Source: a virus
Direction: 5' to 3' (one strand)
IMG/VR virus record: IMGVR_UViG_640753038_000002
DNA: 64,000 nucleotides
Position 1 is the first letter of the stretch, and each line of letters begins with the position of its first letter. A program made the translations under genes and the position numbers. The notes beneath the pieces are model-generated. The model made no database searches and was not told the origin of the DNA. It was given only the letters and a program-made list of their open reading frames with translations. Shown one piece after another: positions 20,644-39,597 of this stretch.

Positions 20644-22194
20644 TCAGTCCTTTGAGTTTTGAGAAGGGACGCCGCCGCCGTCGCCGGGCGGATCGGGTTC
20701 CATTTGGAACATACCCTGTTTGGTGACGTTACGCGGATCGGTGTCCAGAATGACCTTGCCCGCATCAAGCTTCGCGTTCCAGCCGATGGTTTCTTTCAAC
20801 ACAACGTCTGGATTGCGTCCGGTCGAGGAAATGGCATCAGGCATTGACCGAAGCCCGGCGCGAACCTCTGCGATAATTGCTTCCGCATCCTTCTTAGGAT
20901 CAGCCGAATAGAATTTCGGCGGGGTCCATTCTACAGGAACGTAAGGCGTATCGATCTTGCCGTCAGAGTAGGCCGCTTCGCAGAACCAATCCCATATTGG
21001 TTCGCAGAGCATCGGAATAACCATTTGCCACTGAACGGCTGAAACAAGCCGGGCAAATGGTTCGATGCCGATCTTTGAAGAAGCGTAACTTGCCTGCGAA
21101 AGATCGCCGGTCAGTAGGAAATAAGGAATACGGAAGCCAGCCGCGATAGTGTGCAGCATGGCCCGCTTGTATGCCTCATATTGGCTATTCGCGGCGGGCG
21201 TGTTGAACTTGATATCGTCCGCGCCTTCTGCGAACGCAAACATACCGGGTTCAAAGCGCTCGACCGGATAACCAGAGCCGTCGTAGACGCCGGGCTTGCG
21301 CACAACATCGTCAGCCTTAACCGGAATGCCTAAGCCTTCATCCTCATTCTTGCGAACGAGGATACCGACCATGCAGCTTTCAATCTTTTTGCGGACGATT
21401 TCAGCGCCTTCATATTCGCCTAGATCGTGGATAGGCGACATGACGGGCGATCCCCACGGGACGCCGCGCACCTGTGTTCGCTGCTTTTCGAACACATGGG
21501 CGATATCTTTGGCCGCAACAGGCTTGGAAATCAGTGCGGAGCGAGGATCAAGGTAAGTGTTTCCGGGGTGCGATTGGAAAAGCCAATAGTTGGCTCGCCT
21601 TCCTTCGGCATCGAATTCGATACCTTGAACAGCGATATTACCAGCGGAAAGCGGTCCTTCCTTCGCGCTATCGATCATGTCGGTTTCAAGGACTTGCAAT
21701 TGCAAGGGAACCGGCAATTTATCTTTGCGCGTCCGGCGGCGGCGACGAATAATACCGTCGCCACTCTCAATCATCCCGCGAATAGCGAGCGTTTGAAGCC
21801 CATAGAAATCAAGCCCGCCGTCCGCGTCGGCTTTCTTCGACCATTCGTCAAAAAGGTCATTGACCTTCTTGTCTTTTGCGTCGTCGCCCGTTTTGGCGCG
21901 TGGCATGATGCCGTCGCCGACAATATGCGTCACAAGCTGCGTTACTGCATTCGCAGCGTGCGGGTTATTTCGGACTAGCTCACGCATTCGATTGCGAAGG
22001 CGAGCGCCAGCACTTCCGATTTCGGCATCGGCGGACGTACCAGACGACCGCCAATTCCCATTCAGTCGCGAGCTTGTCGCACCATCGTAGCCCCGTGAAA
22101 GGACTTCAAGGACGGCACGCTGACGAACACGGCGCGCGGCAGCGCCGGGGGCAACCCATCCGATTGCCCGATCCAGAAAATTTAGCTTCGTCAT
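20644..22194 (-). CDS. Portal protein, lambda family
   Basis: RLRNRMRELVRNNPHA...RTQVRGVPW...LTGDLSQASYAS. Confidence 0.95.
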   Translation of the reverse strand: MTKLNFLDRAIGWVAPGAAARRVRQRAVLEVLSRGYDGATSSRLNGNWRSSGTSADAEIGSAGARLRNRMRELVRNNPHAANAVTQLVTHIVGDGIMPRAKTGDDAKDKKVNDLFDEWSKKADADGGLDFYGLQTLAIRGMIESGDGIIRRRRRTRKDKLPVPLQLQVLETDMIDSAKEGPLSAGNIAVQGIEFDAEGRRANYWLFQSHPGNTYLDPRSALISKPVAAKDIAHVFEKQRTQVRGVPWGSPVMSPIHDLGEYEGAEIVRKKIESCMVGILVRKNEDEGLGIPVKADDVVRKPGVYDGSGYPVERFEPGMFAFAEGADDIKFNTPAANSQYEAYKRAMLHTIAAGFRIPYFLLTGDLSQASYASSKIGIEPFARLVSAVQWQMVIPMLCEPIWDWFCEAAYSDGKIDTPYVPVEWTPPKFYSADPKKDAEAIIAEVRAGLRSMPDAISSTGRNPDVVLKETIGWNAKLDAGKVILDTDPRNVTKQGMFQMEPDPPGDGGGVPSQNSKD

Positions 22195-22405: not shown

Positions 22406-24541
22406 TTACCAGATGCTTTTTCGTCTTCCGCCGTCCGGGCGCATCCAGTCATCCCGGCGCGGTTGCGCGGGTGGCGGTGGCTGCGGCTGTTGAGGCGGGG
22501 TTTGGTTGACGTCCTCCCGCACAGCAGGGGGCACGACCGGGGCAGGTTGCACCGGCTCAATAGTCACAAGGTCCGCGCCTTCACCGACGCGAACTGTTCC
22601 TTCGGGGATCGTATGGACGCGAAGCATATAGGCCGCTGCCGCTGCCATGCTTTCGCAGTCCAAGAAGTGGTTGTCCTTGTGACGCGGTATCCATTGCGCC
22701 TTACCGTTGGCGGGATTGATCTTCCGACCTTCGGAAACGATCTGGCGCGCGTAATCTTCCGTCACGCCGCCAAAGATCGCACCGTCAGGCTCGACCAACC
22801 CCATAGGCAGATGAAAACTGCCGGGCCTGCCGATTTCCAAACGGACGCGGCTATGAACAAGCGACTTGAAATAGTCGGTGTCCAAGTGGATCAGCGTAAG
22901 CGAGCTTTTATGCCGCTTGCCGGTATGAGCTACTTCGACCTTGGAAGGTCGTAGCGGCGTCGTTTGCGTGTCTTTACCTTTGGTGGCGAAAATCCATCGT
23001 GGATAGCGCAAGGCGAACTCATAAACGCGGTGTTCATCGCCTGCGCCTGTCTTGTTCGGACGGAAACCGCTGTCGATGAAAACGCAGTCGATCATGCGCC
23101 CGTGGATTGGCGTTAGAAGGTACGTTTCGAGTTCATCCCATACGTTGCGATCCGACGTCGGGCCGTAAATCTGGCCGAAGTCGAGCAACCATGACGAACC
23201 GCGAGCGCCGAAGCCGCGAACGACATAGATCAGCGAGCGCTTTTGAACGTCCACGCCTGCGGTAATCCGAATGACTTCACGAGGAAGGTCGCCGATGCGG
23301 TATGGTAGCCGCTTCGTCATAACCTCTTGCCATTCAGGCGTTTCACCCAAGCCGCCGAGCGTATAACACTCACCGAAACCGGCGTTCATAGCGGTTTGGA
23401 TTTCGTTGTCGTCGCCGCTCGCTAGAGCGGACAGGTAGCGTTCGGCACGCTGACCCCATGTCCGAAAAGGACTGGCAAGACCCGATACCCAAAAGCTTAG
23501 CGTCGTACTGTCCGGCGGTGCGCCTTCGACTTCGCCGTCGCGATTGATTGTCTGACCGGGCGCGATGTACCGGCCACGATCATTCATCCAGCGCTTGGCG
23601 CTCAAATTCGACTTAACGACAGTTACGTTTTCGTCTTCATTGATTGTGCATCCGCAATGCGGGCACACAAGATAGGCGTCGCGGCGCGCTTGCGCTGGTG
23701 TGGCGTGTTTCGGCCAATGAAGGCACGAAAAGCGCGGCACGAAGTAATCTCCGCAATGCGGACAGGGCCAAGCCCAATGATACCGCGTACCTGACTGAAA
23801 AAGGGACCAGATAGGGCTTTGAACCGCTTCCGGGTCCGCGACCTTCCAGAATTCAAGCCCGGACACAGGGTCAATCTCCGTTTCGATATGGCCCTGCGAA
23901 GGCGTCGAAGTAACGACCGTAACGAAGTCGGCGTAAGTGTCGCCGCGCGCTTCCACAAGGCCGAGCGGATCGCCTTGCCCCTTAATGTTGGCAAGCATTT
24001 CATCGTATTCATCGACAATCGCAAGCGCTGCGGGGTCGGACTTGAGCGCCGATGAAGAGCCTGCATGAGCTAGGCGGATCGGAACGCCAGCGACGATTTT
24101 GCGCGTCTTCTTCATGCGCTTGCCGCGCTGCACCTTGCCAGAAAGGCGAGGCGCTTCATCGAGCAAGCCCATAAGGCGAGGTTCAAACTGTTCGGTTAGA
24201 AACTCTTTCGTTGGCGCGACCCACAAAATAGGTGCGGGCCGCTGGTCGAGCCGGTGGCCGACGATATCAAGTTCGCTGTCCGTCTTGCCCATCTGAGCGC
24301 CGAAGACGCCAACGACACGGCTTGCGCCGCTGCTATCGACTGCGCGTTCAAATGGGATGACGTAAGGCGTTAGACTAGGTTCGCGTGGACCGGGGACGCC
24401 CGCGCTTGCGGGGTATTGCCTGTTCTCCCTCGCCCACTGATCCGGTGTCAGCTTCGGCGGCACTTCCAAAAACGTCGCCGCCCGTTCGAAGAGTTGCGAC
24501 GGATGACCGGAGCGCGGACGCCATGCGGTTGCGGCTTGCAT
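22406..24541 (-). CDS. terL: Terminase large subunit (lambda gpA family); exact start uncertain
   Basis: GAQMGKT Walker A, IVDEYDE, STPS, WPCPHCG, AGVDVQK, FIDSG, NHFLDCE motifs. Confidence 0.95.
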   Translation of the reverse strand: MQAATAWRPRSGHPSQLFERAATFLEVPPKLTPDQWARENRQYPASAGVPGPREPSLTPYVIPFERAVDSSGASRVVGVFGAQMGKTDSELDIVGHRLDQRPAPILWVAPTKEFLTEQFEPRLMGLLDEAPRLSGKVQRGKRMKKTRKIVAGVPIRLAHAGSSSALKSDPAALAIVDEYDEMLANIKGQGDPLGLVEARGDTYADFVTVVTSTPSQGHIETEIDPVSGLEFWKVADPEAVQSPIWSLFQSGTRYHWAWPCPHCGDYFVPRFSCLHWPKHATPAQARRDAYLVCPHCGCTINEDENVTVVKSNLSAKRWMNDRGRYIAPGQTINRDGEVEGAPPDSTTLSFWVSGLASPFRTWGQRAERYLSALASGDDNEIQTAMNAGFGECYTLGGLGETPEWQEVMTKRLPYRIGDLPREVIRITAGVDVQKRSLIYVVRGFGARGSSWLLDFGQIYGPTSDRNVWDELETYLLTPIHGRMIDCVFIDSGFRPNKTGAGDEHRVYEFALRYPRWIFATKGKDTQTTPLRPSKVEVAHTGKRHKSSLTLIHLDTDYFKSLVHSRVRLEIGRPGSFHLPMGLVEPDGAIFGGVTEDYARQIVSEGRKINPANGKAQWIPRHKDNHFLDCESMAAAAAYMLRVHTIPEGTVRVGEGADLVTIEPVQPAPVVPPAVREDVNQTPPQQPQPPPPAQPRRDDWMRPDGGRRKSIW

Positions 24542-24947
24542 CGATTTCCTTTTCGATAAGCCTGCGCGTCGGCACATCGCGCGTTACTCGCGCTGGCAGG
24601 CCGCTAAGTTCGGCAACCACCACACCAAGAAGGAAATCTTGGGCGGCTGTTGCGTCGTCGGTTGGGATAAGCTCGCGTTTCTTTTCCGCGATACGAATTT
24701 GAATTTCCTCTGCGCGGGCATCGCGCACGCGGTTATCGGCAGAGGTTTTGTTCTGGTTCTTATTGTCTTCGCGTAGGGACTTGATGTAGCCCTGCACCAC
24801 GCCGACGAACGGAACCTTCCCGCGTGAAGGACGGGGGAAATACCCGGCCTTCGATAGTTGCCGGATACGCTCTTCGGAAATCATAAGAAGGCGCGCGGCC
24901 TGTCCAATGGAAATCAGGCCGCTACCCGGTTCGGTTTCGTCTGCCAT
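24375..24947 (-). CDS. terS: Terminase small subunit
   Basis: N-terminal HTH (ISIGQAARLLMISEERIRQL) plus coiled coil; directly upstream of terL. Confidence 0.85.
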   Translation of the reverse strand: MADETEPGSGLISIGQAARLLMISEERIRQLSKAGYFPRPSRGKVPFVGVVQGYIKSLREDNKNQNKTSADNRVRDARAEEIQIRIAEKKRELIPTDDATAAQDFLLGVVVAELSGLPARVTRDVPTRRLIEKEIDASRNRMASALRSSVATLRTGGDVFGSAAEADTGSVGEGEQAIPRKRGRPRSTRT

Positions 24948-25633
24948 TAGATTGCGGGTCGCTCATAGATAAATCCGGCAAAGTCACCAAAGCGGAAGAT
25001 CGGATCGAAGCCGGGAAGCTCCGCTTCCGTCATCGGTCTTTGGACGCCTGCCAGAGACAGTTCTTTTTGAATAATTTCGTCCGCCGGAGCGCCGTTTTCG
25101 TACTTTGCCGCAAGCGTAAGACGATAGATCACTGAGCCTAAATGACCGGCGCGCGCGGCCATCTTGTCGAAGACAAGAACAGCACCGCCCGGCTGGATCG
25201 CATTGACCATCCGACGAACTACGCCCGCGCGATCCGCAACAGGAACGAACATCAAAGCCAAGAAGGCGACGATCAAATCAGGCTTGTAAGGTTGGAAATC
25301 GAACGCCAAAACGTCGGAAACGATCATTTCGCCGGGGGCTTGATAACGCTCCGCCATATCGGCAGCATTGTCGATAGCAATCAACCGAGCTTGACGATCC
25401 GAAAGGGTCTTCGCAATGGCGCGACCGACATTGCCGGTTGAAGCTCCAACGTCAATTACCGTACCGTTTTCAGGCACATAATGGCGGGCGACGTGAGCGA
25501 CAATACCCGTTGCGATATCGTACCACGGCAGTTGTTCGCGCACATGGCTATCAAATGCCGCTGCTACTTCTGGCGTCTTGAAAGTCCAGTTCTCCGGTAT
25601 CTCGAATGTTTTTCCATGCGAATTGCTGGACAT
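24947..25633 (-). CDS. cmoA: CmoA (carboxy-SAM synthase)-like class I SAM-dependent enzyme
   Basis: WTF..VA..F..H...P.Y / D.G.S.G / IAIDN..M.ER / PGGA.L..DK / K..NG...EI.QK segments match CmoA as I recall it; stop overlaps the terS start (TAATG). Confidence 0.75.
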   Translation of the reverse strand: MSSNSHGKTFEIPENWTFKTPEVAAAFDSHVREQLPWYDIATGIVAHVARHYVPENGTVIDVGASTGNVGRAIAKTLSDRQARLIAIDNAADMAERYQAPGEMIVSDVLAFDFQPYKPDLIVAFLALMFVPVADRAGVVRRMVNAIQPGGAVLVFDKMAARAGHLGSVIYRLTLAAKYENGAPADEIIQKELSLAGVQRPMTEAELPGFDPIFRFGDFAGFIYERPAI

Positions 25634-25693: not shown

Positions 25694-26260
25694 TTGAAAA
25701 TGACGAATTTGACTTCCGTAGAAGTGTCCAAGCTCACAGCAATTGTTACCGGCGGCGTATTCCACCGCTCCGCAACTCGTACCGAAGCGGTTAATCGCTT
25801 CCAGCGCGTTTGCGACGAAGCAAAGATCGCTTCACCGCTGATCTTTCTCGAAAAGCCGTTTGATATCGCTTCCGCCGAATTGTCGGTCGCGGTTAGCACT
25901 TGCAAGTCGCAGGTCGCCGAGGCTCCGCAGTCGCAATTGTCGTTCGAAGAGAACGAAGCGGAGGTCGTCAATTTCAGCGCTGCACGCAGCCTTATTCGTT
26001 CATCCGCTATCGATCTGGCTATCGCGACCAAGCCGCAGCCAAAGAAAGAAGCCAAAGAGCCGAAGGAACCGACCAAGCGCGAAGTTATGCTTGATATGGT
26101 ATGTAGTCCGGAAGGCGCTACCGAAGCCGAAATCTGCGAGCGGATCGGCTGGAAAGCCTGCGCGACGACGCTCAAGCGAGCCGCAAAGGCCGCTAACGTT
26201 ACTCTTCGCCTTGAGCGCCAGAAAGGCGCGAAATCACGCTTCTTCGGCACGCGGCCATAA
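25694..26260 (+). CDS. DUF3489-like protein with C-terminal winged HTH
   Basis: PTKREVMLDMVCSPEGATEAEICERIGW resembles DUF3489 (K...LI.ML.RPEGAT..EI...TGW). Confidence 0.6.
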   Translation: MKMTNLTSVEVSKLTAIVTGGVFHRSATRTEAVNRFQRVCDEAKIASPLIFLEKPFDIASAELSVAVSTCKSQVAEAPQSQLSFEENEAEVVNFSAARSLIRSSAIDLAIATKPQPKKEAKEPKEPTKREVMLDMVCSPEGATEAEICERIGWKACATTLKRAAKAANVTLRLERQKGAKSRFFGTRP

Positions 26261-26269
26261 CCCGCGTGC

Positions 26270-27343
26270 TTACCTGCCGATCTTGGCTAGAATTTCATCG
26301 CGAACGGTTGCCGCTATATGGCTCATCATTACCGGCGGCACCGCTCTTCCAATCCGTTCCCATTGCTGCGCATAGGTTCCGGTTAGCTTGAAGTCGTCGG
26401 GAAAACCGCCGATCCGCCGAAGCTCCGCGATACTGAACTTTCTCTTTTCAGTCGGATGCGTCACACCAGCGAGTGAAGCCGTCCCGCCCGCCGCCGTAAT
26501 TGTCGGCGACGGTTCGTTAGGGTCGGGCCGTACAAGCTGAAAATAGCGATCTGATTGACCGCCGGGATTTAGCTTGTCCCATTCTTCACCGATAGCAAAA
26601 CGCCCGATATCGGCTTCCGCTTCGACCGTAACTGCTATTCCGTTCGTCAACCATGGCAGCGCGTCGCTGATCGAATAGCGATACGAAAGAGGCTTAGGAA
26701 AGACCGGATTTAGGCCAAGGTCTTCGCGAACGCCCATAAAGATTAGACGCTGCCGCGCCTGCGGTACGCCAAGCCATTGAGCGTCAAGCAAACGCGCTTC
26801 AACCCGATATCCGCACGCCTTGAGCGCTGCAAGGATTTCGAGGAAATAGCCCTTTGCCGTGCCTTTGATTAGGCCGCTGACGTTCTCCGCAACGAAGACC
26901 TTCGGCTTGAGTTGGCGCAGAAGCCGAGCGTATTCGAAGAATAGATCATCGACGCGCTGTTCACTGTCGGAATACTTCTTTACCTGCCCCCACGCCTTTT
27001 CGCGCTTGCCTGCCGTCGAGAAAGACGCGCAAGGAGGCGAGCCGTCGAAAACGTCAAGTTCGCCCGGCTTGAGGCCGGTCGCTGCAAGGATTTCGTCTGC
27101 CGTGACCTGCCGGATATCGCGACCGTCAACAATCGTTCCGGGCCGCGCGTTGGCAAGGTACGTTTCGCGAGCGGCTTCGATAAACTCGGAAGCGAAAAGT
27201 ACACGAAAGCCCGCCATGCGATAGCCGGTTGAAGAGCCGCCACAGCCTGCAAAAGTCGAGATTACGTTATAGCCGTTCCACGGCATCGCGCTGACGTCGC
27301 TCATGAGCGGTACTTGATACGGCGGCTTGTCCAAGCTGGTCAT
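26270..27343 (-). CDS. C5-cytosine DNA methyltransferase-fold enzyme with motif-X Arg (putative carboxymethyltransferase, CmoX-like); ORF can extend to GTG at 27514
   Basis: Motif I FAGCGG, IV GSPPC, VI ENV, VIII QARQR, X ERIGRAVPP; AAGGA RBS before ATG 27343. Confidence 0.9.
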   Translation of the reverse strand: MTSLDKPPYQVPLMSDVSAMPWNGYNVISTFAGCGGSSTGYRMAGFRVLFASEFIEAARETYLANARPGTIVDGRDIRQVTADEILAATGLKPGELDVFDGSPPCASFSTAGKREKAWGQVKKYSDSEQRVDDLFFEYARLLRQLKPKVFVAENVSGLIKGTAKGYFLEILAALKACGYRVEARLLDAQWLGVPQARQRLIFMGVREDLGLNPVFPKPLSYRYSISDALPWLTNGIAVTVEAEADIGRFAIGEEWDKLNPGGQSDRYFQLVRPDPNEPSPTITAAGGTASLAGVTHPTEKRKFSIAELRRIGGFPDDFKLTGTYAQQWERIGRAVPPVMMSHIAATVRDEILAKIGR

Positions 27344-27515
27344 AGGTCGATCCTTGCCGTCGCGCTCAATAACGATATGGACCGGGCGACCGGCAACAAT
27401 CGCAGGTGACGGCGTATCGGTGCAGTCAATAAATTCATGAGCGGTGCCGGGGAACTTACGCGCGCCCGGCGTGTCCTTGAGCAAGCCTACTTGGCGCTCA
27501 ATCCAAATCCGCACT

Positions 27516-28052
27516 TCACTTTACCTTGCCTGACCATTGATACCCGCATTTCGGGCACTGGTGTTCGGTTGCAATATCCTCGCCGTAAGATGGAAACTCT
27601 TCCGGCGCGGAAGGCGCTTTCGCCTCTGCGAAAAGCTTGCCGATTTCCTTATCGTCAAAGCCCATCATGTCGGCGCTGAATTCACCTTCGGAAAGAAGGT
27701 TATCAAGCTCGATTTTGAGAAGCTCTTCATCCCAACCGCCGCCAATCTCGGAAAGCTTGTTATCGGCAATGGTGTAAGCGCGTCTTTTCTCTTCCGACCA
27801 ATCGCGAGCCACAACGACCGGCACTTCTTCAAGAGCAAGATACTTCGCAGCAAGCACGCGGCCATGACCTGCAATGATCGTACCGTCTTCCGCTACAAGA
27901 ACCGGCATTGTGAAGCCGAATTCTTCGATAGATTTCGCTAGTTTTTTGACCTGATTATCCGAATGCTTCTTAGCGTTTCGAGCATACGGAATAAGGTCTT
28001 CAACAGCCCACATTTCGGCGCTTGCAGCGAGGTTATTGACGGCGCTTGTCAT
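27516..28052 (-). CDS. ParB/Srx N-terminal domain protein with C-terminal Zn ribbon
   Basis: LIPYARNAKKH...SIEEFGF..PVLV...IIAGHGR...ADNKL; CPKCGY at the C-terminus. Confidence 0.88.
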   Translation of the reverse strand: MTSAVNNLAASAEMWAVEDLIPYARNAKKHSDNQVKKLAKSIEEFGFTMPVLVAEDGTIIAGHGRVLAAKYLALEEVPVVVARDWSEEKRRAYTIADNKLSEIGGGWDEELLKIELDNLLSEGEFSADMMGFDDKEIGKLFAEAKAPSAPEEFPSYGEDIATEHQCPKCGYQWSGKVK

Positions 28053-32711: not shown

Positions 32712-33245
32712 ATGGAAGAAGCAATCTCGCATTTCAGGACTACTATCGAACCGGAATTACATTCGCTGGCTTTGCTCTGTGCTGAACTCAAAATCGGCTT
32801 CCAAGCTTCGGCGACGTTCGGCCCTGACGCCGAAGGGCATAGCCCAACGTTCTATATCTATACGCAAGTAACAGGGGCTTTTCCCCCGATTGTCGGTTCG
32901 GCTGAGTTCATGCCTGCCGTTATTGATCCGCAATGGATCGACGGCTTTGCGAAGTGGAACTTTGCGACTTTCGGCCCCGGCCTTCGTACCGAAGGCACTA
33001 TCGATCATATCCGCGAAGAGCTAGTCGAAATCGAAGCAGCGCCGACAGACCCGGAAGAGTGGGTTGACGTTCTTATGCTCTCGTTGAACGGCCTAACGCG
33101 GCTCGGCCTGAGTGGCAGCGAAATCATCGACGCGATCAACGCGAAGTTTCAGAAGAACTTGGCTCGGAATTGGCCGGACTGGCGAATAGCCCCGCGCGAC
33201 AAGGCTATCAAGCACCAACGGGCCGACGATGAAGCTCAACGATAA
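32712..33245 (+). CDS. dATP/dGTP pyrophosphohydrolase-domain protein (DUF550/MazG-like)
   Basis: FGPG.R..G..DHIREEL.EI...P.D..EW.DV..L...G..R...K...N.AR.WPDWR. Confidence 0.8.
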   Translation: MEEAISHFRTTIEPELHSLALLCAELKIGFQASATFGPDAEGHSPTFYIYTQVTGAFPPIVGSAEFMPAVIDPQWIDGFAKWNFATFGPGLRTEGTIDHIREELVEIEAAPTDPEEWVDVLMLSLNGLTRLGLSGSEIIDAINAKFQKNLARNWPDWRIAPRDKAIKHQRADDEAQR

Positions 33246-35905: not shown

Positions 35906-36308
35906 TCGTAAAGAAGCCTTCCTTAGATCATGGTTTGACGTGCCAGAAGGTGTCCATTGGGCGCACGGTATGTCGAACGAGATAGAACAGAATGTTAGCG
36001 CTTGCTTTGATCGAGCTATCGACGCTTGGAACGCGCGCCCCTCTACGGACGTCAGGCTTGTAGTGGTTGGCGAAGTCTCGACCGTTAGGGAAAGCGTCGC
36101 GGTATTCGCCGGTCATATCCTGAGCCGTCAAATTAAACCGGGCGATTTGCTCTGCCTGCATTTGCAGGCTGAGAAGCTATTAGCAGCTGAGCGCGCGGAG
36201 AAGGAAAAGATTGAAGCCGCTTGGTTGGAAGCGGAAGGCATTATCTCCGACCTTAAAGCCGAACTTGCGACTTGCTTGGCGAAATTAAGGGGCAAAAATG
36301 AGCAATAG
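35895..36308 (+). CDS. Hypothetical protein (ead/Ea22-like coiled coil)
   Basis: QAEKLLAAERAEKE coiled-coil segment. Confidence 0.55.
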   Translation: MANDRKEAFLRSWFDVPEGVHWAHGMSNEIEQNVSACFDRAIDAWNARPSTDVRLVVVGEVSTVRESVAVFAGHILSRQIKPGDLLCLHLQAEKLLAAERAEKEKIEAAWLEAEGIISDLKAELATCLAKLRGKNEQ

Positions 36309-36792
36309 CGGACAGTCACTTCCAACGCTTTTTGTCGATATGGACGGCGTTCTTGCCGACTTCGATCAAGGGTACGCCGACCGCTTCGGAATTCGGCCAA
36401 GCAAGACTGACGATAACGTCGATTGGGGCTTAGTAAGGGGTACGGAGGGCTTCTACGCTGGATTGCCGCCTATGCCTGATTTTGACCAGCTATGGCGGGG
36501 CGTAGCCCCATACAATCCGATCATCCTGACCGGCGTTCCGCGTTCGGTGCGAGAAGCCGCCGACAATAAGCGCGCTTGGGTTGATCGCTGGATCGGCAAA
36601 GATCAGCCGATGATCGCTTGTCAGTCGAAAGACAAGAGCCTGCATATCAGGAAGCCCGGCGATATTCTGATCGATGATTGGGAAAAGTACCGCTCGGTTT
36701 GGATTGGTCGAGGCGGTAGATGGATAACGCACACTTCCGCCGAAGCTTCGCTTGCCGGTTTGGCCGCGCTCCTTGCCGGAGGATCGCAATGA
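36298..36792 (+). CDS. HAD-family 5'(3')-deoxyribonucleotidase-like protein
   Basis: FVDMDGVLADF (DxD), ILTG, K..W, LIDD, W...GG..I.H. Confidence 0.85.
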   Translation: MSNSGQSLPTLFVDMDGVLADFDQGYADRFGIRPSKTDDNVDWGLVRGTEGFYAGLPPMPDFDQLWRGVAPYNPIILTGVPRSVREAADNKRAWVDRWIGKDQPMIACQSKDKSLHIRKPGDILIDDWEKYRSVWIGRGGRWITHTSAEASLAGLAALLAGGSQ

Positions 36793-37492: not shown

Positions 37493-37951
37493 ATGACAAT
37501 CCTTTCGGCTCAATCTATCCGCACGCGCGGGATCTTCAAACCCTTCCATGAGCGAACCCTAAGCAACGGCATGACCTTCGGTCTTGGCCCGGCAGGCTAC
37601 GACGTTCGGATCGCGGAAACTCTAACTCTTGAACCGGCGCGCCGCGCCGTTCTAGCAAGCACCATGGAACACTTTACCATGCCGGTCGATTGCGCGGCAT
37701 ACGTCAAAGACAAATCGACATGGGCGCGGCGGTTCGTTCTTGTCCAGAATACGGTTATAGAACCGGGTTGGCGCGGCTTTCTTACGCTCGAAATCTCTTA
37801 CGAAGGACAAGAGCCGATCACGATTGAGCAAGGTTCGCCGATTGCGCAAATCATCTTTCACAAGCTGGATGAACCTACCGAAAGCCCTTATGCCGGTAAG
37901 TATCAAGACCAGTCGGAAGGCGCGCAACCGGCACGCTTAGAAGGCCAATAA
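37493..37951 (+). CDS. dcd: dCTP deaminase
   Basis: GLGPAGYDVRI...STMEHF..P......KSTWAR...VIEPGWRGFLTLEI...IAQIIF...Y.GKYQ.Q. Confidence 0.9.
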   Translation: MTILSAQSIRTRGIFKPFHERTLSNGMTFGLGPAGYDVRIAETLTLEPARRAVLASTMEHFTMPVDCAAYVKDKSTWARRFVLVQNTVIEPGWRGFLTLEISYEGQEPITIEQGSPIAQIIFHKLDEPTESPYAGKYQDQSEGAQPARLEGQ

Positions 37952-38919: not shown

Positions 38920-39597
38920 TCAGACCAGTGTACCGATTTCGGCGATAGGCTGCATCGTGTCGTCGCCTTGATATCGGCTCGAATTCACGTTCGTAGAGAC
39001 ACGCCAAGCCTGCAAGTCGTCACCGGGCGCTGGCTTCAAAAGATCGATGCGCGGTTCAGCCAGCCATTCGCGCCAATTTTTTTCTTGCAGGATAACCGGC
39101 ATACGGGTGTGAATTCCCCGCATGAAGGAATTCGCATCGCAGGTTATAATTGCGCAACTTGTGATTTCGTCGCCCGTCTCGCGATCCCGCCAGCGGTCAT
39201 AAATTCCGGCAAACGTTAGCGGGCGACCGTCCTTTGCGGATATGAACCAAGGCAATTTGTCGCCTTTCTGGCCGGTCCATTCGAAGAAGCCCGTTGCCGG
39301 AATTAGGCACCTTTGACGCTGTAGCGGTACTTTAAACATGCCGCTTGTGGCGACACCTTCCGCGCGGGCGTTGTGACCAAAGGGCGCTTTCTTGATGCTG
39401 TCCTTGAACCACGACGGCACCAATGACCAGCGCATTTCTGAATAGGTAAGATCGTTGCCCGCTTGCGTGACAACGCCGATTTGCGTTGTCGGCGCGATGT
39501 TATAGCGGGGCTGCAAGTTTCGAGGCGTTGCCGGAACTAGGTTATACATCGCGTGGATTTCGGCCCAAGTGTACGTTTGCGTAAATCGTCCGCACAT
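38920..39597 (-). CDS. SOS response-associated peptidase (SRAP/YedK/HMCES family, abasic-site protection)
   Basis: MCGRF N-terminus (Cys2), PRYNIAPT, NARAE, RCLIPATGFFEW, IHTRMPVIL. Confidence 0.95.
   Translation of the reverse strand: MCGRFTQTYTWAEIHAMYNLVPATPRNLQPRYNIAPTTQIGVVTQAGNDLTYSEMRWSLVPSWFKDSIKKAPFGHNARAEGVATSGMFKVPLQRQRCLIPATGFFEWTGQKGDKLPWFISAKDGRPLTFAGIYDRWRDRETGDEITSCAIITCDANSFMRGIHTRMPVILQEKNWREWLAEPRIDLLKPAPGDDLQAWRVSTNVNSSRYQGDDTMQPIAEIGTLV

Follow-up and report, generated by a model that had tools for sequence, protein, structure and literature searches.

A CmoA-like gene in the packaging region of a prophage

The window, a stretch of 64,000 nucleotides of viral DNA (IMG/VR record IMGVR_UViG_640753038_000002), carries a prophage of an alphaproteobacterial, Brucella/Ochrobactrum-like host. 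In the packaging region of this prophage lies a gene for a CmoA-like protein, P0001, whose nearest database protein comes from Brucella anthropi (97% identity). A gene for a DNA cytosine-C5 methyltransferase, P0002, is found on the same strand at a distance of 636 bp, with a ParB_N-domain gene ahead of it and a DUF3489 gene inserted before P0001 (Table 1). Terminase-like genes and an open reading frame in the portal position follow the CmoA-like gene. The ATG of the small-terminase-like gene overlaps the TAA of the CmoA-like gene in a TAATG (24947-24949), an arrangement that points to translational coupling between synthesis of the cofactor and the packaging operon.

Table 1 Features of the CmoA-like locus and of the prophage early region, in window coordinates (Ec, E. 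coli CmoA numbering).
Feature	Position	Strand	Evidence or remark
516-aa ORF, portal position	20644-22194	-	Position
Large-terminase-like gene, downstream of the module	22406..24577	-	Role from length and place ahead of the portal gene
Small-terminase-like gene	24375..24947	-	Weak MerR HTH match only
CmoA-like gene P0001, predicted carboxy-SAM synthase, divergent phage clade	24947..25633	-	228 aa; ATG start at 25633, TAA stop at 24947-24949
KELSLAGVQRP of P0001, residues 190-200	25034..25066	-	Lys190 = Ec Lys198, Glu191 = Ec Arg199, Arg199 = Ec Leu207
AFLALMFVPV of P0001, post-beta4 motif	25238..25267	-	Over Ec LNFTLQFL; Asn132 to Phe, Gln136 to Met
His30 codon of P0001	25544..25546	-	Column of Ec Met31; His in 205/206 clade members
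DUF3489 gene between methyltransferase and CmoA-like gene	25694..26260	+	PF11994, E 9.7e-15
P0002, predicted CmoX-like DNA cytosine-C5 carboxymethyltransferase	26270..27514	-	PF00145, E 3.8e-53
ERIGRAVPP of P0002	26333-26359	-	Contains Arg390, at the SpCmoX Arg350 / HhaI Asn304 position
SPPC of P0002	27029-27040	-	Residue 159
ParB_N-domain protein, usual first gene of the module	27516..28052	-	Pfam match
dATP/dGTP pyrophosphohydrolase, early region	32712-33245	+	PF04447, E 1.6e-46
NT5C-like 5'-nucleotidase, early region	36298-36792	+	
dCTP-deaminase/dUTPase-like protein, early region	37493-37951	+	
SRAP (SOS-response-associated peptidase) gene, early-region edge	38920-39597	-	PF02586, E 1.2e-66

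The early region of the prophage encodes a dATP/dGTP pyrophosphohydrolase, an NT5C-like 5'-nucleotidase and a dCTP-deaminase/dUTPase-like protein, and an SRAP gene is located at its edge. These nucleotide-pool genes might relate to DNA modification.

The Pfam matches of P0001 are limited to generic class-I methyltransferase domains (Methyltransf_25, Methyltransf_11 and Methyltransf_12). Its best NCBIfam family is CmoA, with scores below the cut-offs of the curated CmoA equivalogs (TIGR00740, 62.1 bits against a cut-off of 193; PRK15451, 53.9 bits against 285). The AF2 model of the protein (pLDDT 94.8) has the class-I Rossmann fold together with the cofactor-closing lid formed by alpha2, alpha6 and alpha7, and among PDB entries it matches E. 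coli CmoA best (4GEK, TM 0.83 over 230 columns). The alpha7 lid helix is down to one turn in the model, in a region about 9 residues shorter. When a profile built from 106 clade sequences was compared with the PDB, 4GEK was matched over its full length with an E-value of 4e-36, and the next family was CysG at 1e-14. The product of this gene is a CmoA-like class-I methyltransferase, in agreement with the first-pass annotation, which had called it a CmoA homologue.

The similarity to CmoA extends to the cofactor site. Of the 12 contacts listed for E. coli CmoA (PMC3663124), 10 are present in P0001, namely Tyr39, Asp62, Gly64, Ser66, Ala70, Asp89, Asn90, Asp117, Ile118 (as Val) and Phe137 (E. coli numbering is used throughout unless a residue is ascribed to another protein). 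The two changed contacts, Asn132 and Arg199, are also changed in SpCmoA, the homologue from Synechococcus phage S-B43, where they are Leu and Glu. Arg143, Lys165, Lys185 and Lys198, basic residues common to all the CmoA homologues compared, are kept. P0001 thus shares the fold and most SAM contacts with E. coli CmoA (P76290; 4GEK, 4IWN) and with H. influenzae YecO (1IM8), at an identity of about 20-24%; it differs from the E. coli enzyme in having Glu for Arg199, Phe for Asn132, Met for Gln136, Trp for Gly38 and His for Met31. The partners differ as well, being the tRNA-modifying CmoB in E. coli and a DNA methyltransferase in the window. The next-closest solved fold is that of the SAM-dependent enzymes CysG and BelI from Kitasatospora and Streptomyces (PDB 9FCD, 9FCE and related entries; TM about 0.76-0.78). 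However, their profile E-value is some 20 orders weaker than that of CmoA, their alignment ends before the alpha6 lid region, and unlike P0001 they show no synteny with a DNA methyltransferase.

Active-site columns are altered across a large viral clade

Three comparisons, phmmer against 4GEK (whose chain residue Arg213 is native Arg199), MAFFT, and the clade profile against the PDB, agreed on the alignment register, with the invariant Lys198 as anchor. The phmmer alignment covers residues 15-197 of P0001 and is free of gaps at the disputed motif. EIIQKELSL lies over EISQKRSML, placing Glu191 of P0001 in the Arg199 column and its Lys190 in that of Lys198; IVAFLALMFV lies over VVLNFTLQFL, with Phe, Leu, Ala and Met at Asn132, Phe133, Thr134 and Gln136; and PWY lies over PGY, with Trp37 at Gly38. 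All three substitutions, which the first-pass annotation had proposed by eye, are upheld by the three methods, and the Arg199 column of the proper alignment is not Arg in P0001.

These features belong to a large clade. At E <= 1e-5 it comprises 1,556 protein clusters at 90% identity, and its members occur in 538 stretches of IMG/VR. In a maximum-likelihood tree the clade is monophyletic (support 100/100) and set apart by a long stem. Of its 206 evaluable members, 204 have Glu or Asp in the Arg199 column; Gly204 is found in 205 and Gln206 in 201. The Arg of GVQRP is kept in 181 of 206 (88%), and hydrophobic residues occupy the position in the other 12%. Since the states of all four positions are conserved clade-wide, the changes are not due to chance. 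Near-invariance also extends to His30, Lys190, Glu191 and GxQRP of P0001, and to the motifs QLPWYD, LxLMF and KELSLxGxQRP. In the lid, the helix ends at Ser193 of P0001, position 203 is Ala or Ser, and the conserved GxQRP turn follows; the clade is without Arg203, which SpCmoA-type enzymes have one helical turn past the Arg199 column. KELSLxGxQRP is a conserved motif of this clade, whose genes lie beside a methyltransferase bearing GR[AS]VPP in 74 of 80 related viral loci; the first-pass annotation had raised such a co-occurrence as a question.

The closest GenBank phage relative of P0001 is a protein of Moraxella phage Mcat8 annotated as hypothetical (AKI27361.1, 45% identity). It shares KELSLSGIQRP and LTLMF, and the Mcat8 locus has the same order of ParB, SPPC/GR methyltransferase, CmoA-like and terminase genes. 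Mcat8 has a different host and no DUF3489 insert.

Arg199 varies among phage CmoA homologues

The loss of Arg199 would matter if it signalled a new cofactor. When Cx-SAM is bound to E. coli CmoA, this residue is salt-bridged to the ligand's carboxylate at a distance of 2.7 A, and Byrne et al. (2013) proposed it as a hallmark of the CmoA family (PMC3663124). Kim et al. (2015) described it as the only residue of the enzyme that contacts this carboxylate (PMC4482062). In the same work, Cx-SAM stayed on E. coli CmoA through purification, and the low activity of the enzyme was attributed to probable product inhibition (PMC4482062). Mutational evidence that Arg199 is essential for catalysis was not found in Byrne et al. 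2013, Kim et al. 2015 or a 2023 review. The residue had been called essential in the first-pass annotation, a description that goes beyond the salt bridge to the product carboxylate reported in PMC3663124 and PMC4482062.

A direct comparison is provided by SpCmoA (UniProt A0A514ABH6), the one phage CmoA with measured activity. Yang et al. (Nat Commun 2025, PMC12783734) showed that it converts SAM to Cx-SAM with prephenate, at a kcat of 2.33 s-1, against 0.23 s-1 for the E. coli enzyme (PMC12783734). Arg199 is not mentioned in the main text or the text supplementary files of that study (PMC12783734). In our BLASTP alignment of SpCmoA with E. coli CmoA, EEIMDKEKELRDM lies over LEISQKRSMLENV, with Glu in the Arg199 column; the Asn132 column is Leu. 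SpCmoA is active without Arg199, so the premise that an enzyme which has lost this residue does not make Cx-SAM fails. Since SpCmoA synthesizes Cx-SAM with Glu in this column, Arg199 appears to be a feature that defines bacterial CmoA and not Cx-SAM synthase activity. By analogy with SpCmoA, we do not read the absence of Arg199 from P0001 as evidence of new chemistry.

The column was surveyed with MAFFT in 15 phage lineages and E. coli. Arg is present in E. coli, Dickeya AD1, PaBG and Afa-NA1, Glu in S-B43, S-CRM01 and the window clade, Ser, Gln or Ala in Staphylococcus, gut, Gordonia and Streptomyces phages, and Thr or Asn in SM1 and HJ05. Lys198 is invariant throughout this set. The Arg199 types carry Met31 and Glu203, whereas most of the non-Arg types carry His31 and Arg203; all tested phage homologues that lack Arg199 and have Arg203, SpCmoA included, have His in the Met31 column. 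In a wider IMG/VR sample obtained with an alignment query (scans with single proteins, the SPbeta-like and AD1 homologues, returned only close relatives), the combination Met31, Arg199 and Glu203 was found in 74 of 80 loci, and the three loci with His31 were all non-Arg at 199 with Arg203. On the tree, the window clade groups with the other His31 phage homologues at 94/90, a support below the star thresholds of the tool, and the group with His31 and Arg203 needs two changes, the deep nodes also being below those thresholds.

The AF2 model of a relative 99% identical to SpCmoA places Glu188 and Arg192 on one helix (181-192), in i/i+4 spacing and on the same face, so that the E. coli pair Arg199 and Glu203 seems to be exchanged here. 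Loss of the Arg clamp may speed product release and so explain the ten-fold higher phage turnover, because product inhibition probably limits the E. coli enzyme (PMC4482062); this is an explanation of our own. The system itself has already been published. What appears modestly new, as judged from these alignments, is that Arg199 is variable and probably dispensable among phage CmoAs, its part being to hold the product in the bacterial tRNA enzyme as opposed to a requirement for Cx-SAM synthesis; the suggestion that its loss quickens product release is the second such point. An annotation rule that relies on Arg199 or on the TIGR00740 cut-off will overlook a phage clade of very large size.

These comparisons also bear on the proposal that the active site of P0001 is remodelled and that the Arg of its GVQRP compensates for the lost one. 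The remodelling fits, since phage homologues are active-site variants in which the loss of Arg199 goes with His in the Met31 column. Compensation is plausible and partly supported by this covariation; the candidate substitute, Arg199 in the numbering of P0001, is the residue that is hydrophobic in 12% of clade members. P0001 and SpCmoA share His at Met31, Glu at Arg199, Lys198, the absence of Asn132 and, at positions 207 and 208, a basic residue and then Pro. Both are phage-borne and lie beside a CmoX-type C5-methyltransferase. At 20-22% identity they also differ. In SpCmoA, FTLQF and a complete alpha7 helix are kept and position 203 is Arg (its Arg192); in the window clade the motif is LxLMF, position 203 is Ala or Ser, the GxQRP turn is present and the lid is shorter by about 9 residues.

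The module and its methyltransferase

In S-B43, the C5-methyltransferase homologue CmoX uses only Cx-SAM and makes 5-carboxymethylcytosine (5cxmC), and the phage also encodes CmoY, an amide ligase (PMC12783734). CmoX can be recognised by its SPPC motif and its Arg350; the latter takes the place of Asn304 in HhaI and is in contact with the carboxymethyl group. Many CmoX contigs carry CmoA and a ParBc protein (PMC12783734). P0002 matches SpCmoX with 42% identity (E 3e-86) and conserves F25, E47, F48, D69, C98 and R350. Gene content and these residues identify the window locus as a putative ParB-CmoX-CmoA module of the published 5cxmC kind (Yang et al. 2025).

The arrangement recurs among the best 80 related viral loci in IMG/VR. 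An adjacent C5-methyltransferase is present in 74 of them, and SPPC and GR[AS]VPP occur together in all 74. In five of the six remaining loci the contig starts no more than about 1.3 kb from the CmoA-like gene, so that an upstream methyltransferase would lie beyond its end. ParB is found in 66 of the 80 loci and the order ParB, methyltransferase, CmoA-like gene in 62; the frames of the methyltransferase and the CmoA-like gene abut or overlap in 47 of the 74 loci with a methyltransferase. A homologue of the large-terminase-like gene follows the CmoA-like gene in 32 of 80, and DUF3489 is present in 6 of 80. In a single related locus, IMGVR_UViG_3300008116_006614, ParB and the CmoA-like gene are about 1.9 kb apart and a C5-methyltransferase between them is undetectable; it may have been degraded or replaced.

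The window module has ParB and, in contrast to the S-B43 system, is without a CmoY ligase: a CmoY-type, Asn-synthase-like ligase (PF00733) has no match within the window. As no such ligase is encoded there, no hypermodification step is predicted. A CmoY-type ligase elsewhere in the prophage was considered and rejected, there being no PF00733 match inside the window.

In the host genome, neither CmoA nor CmoB was found above the family cut-offs. With a host that lacks CmoA and a CmoX-type enzyme that uses Cx-SAM only, the P0001 gene would be the only possible source of the cofactor. This bears on whether P0001 could be a plain SAM-dependent methyltransferase, with Cx-SAM coming from elsewhere. 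Such an enzyme might methyl-esterify 5cxmC, as CmoM does on cmo5U, or act on another phage or host target; its intact SAM-binding motifs and the generic methyltransferase domains returned by Pfam are what one would expect of it. We consider this quite unlikely, because a host without CmoA could not supply Cx-SAM, SAM is not a cofactor of CmoX-type enzymes, the likeness over the whole length is to closed-lid CmoA and not to substrate-binding methyltransferases, and the CmoA-specific Lys198 and Lys185 are conserved.

A predicted route to 5-carboxymethylcytosine

We consider it likely that P0001 is an ordinary Cx-SAM synthase of a divergent clade with a remodelled lid, serving 5cxmC modification of the prophage DNA. 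The analysis shows its fold, its SAM-site residues, the gene order and the Cx-SAM residues of P0002; substrate, product and the parts played by His30 and Arg199 of P0001 are predicted. P0001 would bind SAM in its CmoA-type Rossmann fold with lid and carboxylate the SAM methyl group, host prephenate presumably being the CO2 donor. The resulting Cx-SAM would be passed to the neighbouring CmoX-type C5-methyltransferase, whose motif-X Arg would bind the cofactor carboxylate, and this enzyme would write 5-carboxymethylcytosine on phage DNA at around the time of packaging. The phage would have to bring its own synthase because the host lacks CmoA. Arg199 of the E. coli enzyme would clamp the product without being needed for catalysis, and in the window clade the lid over the sulfonium would be remodelled, with the invariant Lys190 and His30, Glu191 and usually Arg199 of GxQRP (all in P0001 numbering) as its probable residues. 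The prophage, in a host without the cmo5U pathway, is thus predicted to carry 5-carboxymethylcytosine, which would extend the host range of the system to Brucella/Ochrobactrum-like bacteria.

Several observations count against this explanation, among them the low identity, the scores below cut-off, the long stem branch, the lack of Arg203, the change of Gln136 to Met and the short alpha7; a further one is that the candidate substitute Arg of GxQRP is not universal. Some of the same observations would fit a clade that makes another SAM derivative or uses a donor other than prephenate, its paired Arg-bearing methyltransferase installing an undescribed acidic cytosine modification, as the first-pass annotation had suggested. 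The clade stands on its fully supported long stem, falls below the CmoA family cut-offs, has near-invariant motifs of its own (QLPWYD, LxLMF and KELSLxGxQRP), is without Arg199 as well as Arg203, and has a lid whose alpha7 helix is truncated. However, the loss of Arg199 is equally true of SpCmoA, a proven Cx-SAM synthase that has Glu at this position and uses prephenate, and Arg143, Lys165, Lys185 and Lys198 are retained. A different acidic cofactor is further opposed by P0002, which at 42% identity to SpCmoX retains each of the Cx-SAM contacts named for that enzyme, and no further biosynthetic gene is conserved in the module. We therefore regard a new derivative or donor as unlikely. In a milder variant, the clade might represent a mechanistically distinct Cx-SAM synthase optimised for product release, with a His/Glu/Lys triad in place of the Arg clamp.

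SAM depletion by phage CmoA was raised as an open question by Yang et al. (PMC12783734), and P0001 could accordingly act mainly as an anti-defence consumer or sequestering protein of SAM, with its product incidental. The pairing with a Cx-SAM-type methyltransferase in 74 of 80 loci points instead to cofactor supply as the selected function, and we think SAM consumption most improbable as the main role, although the two roles are not mutually exclusive.

Other genomic settings of phage CmoA homologues

In Pseudomonas phage SM1, Aeromonas phage HJ05 and Gordonia phage Evaa, the CmoA homologue adjoins ParB-fused proteins of 500-600 aa and has no adjoining CmoX-type C5-methyltransferase. Among the Arg199-type viral loci, 63 of 74 are without a C5-methyltransferase within 3.5 kb. 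Cx-SAM may have other acceptors in phages. In an SPbeta-like Staphylococcus phage locus (L006:3663-4676) and in L196:5482-6498, the C5-methyltransferase beside the CmoA homologue has GSPCQSF and VGGVINQ, with neither SPPC nor an Arg at the motif-X position; if these two enzymes are Cx-SAM users, they recognise it differently.
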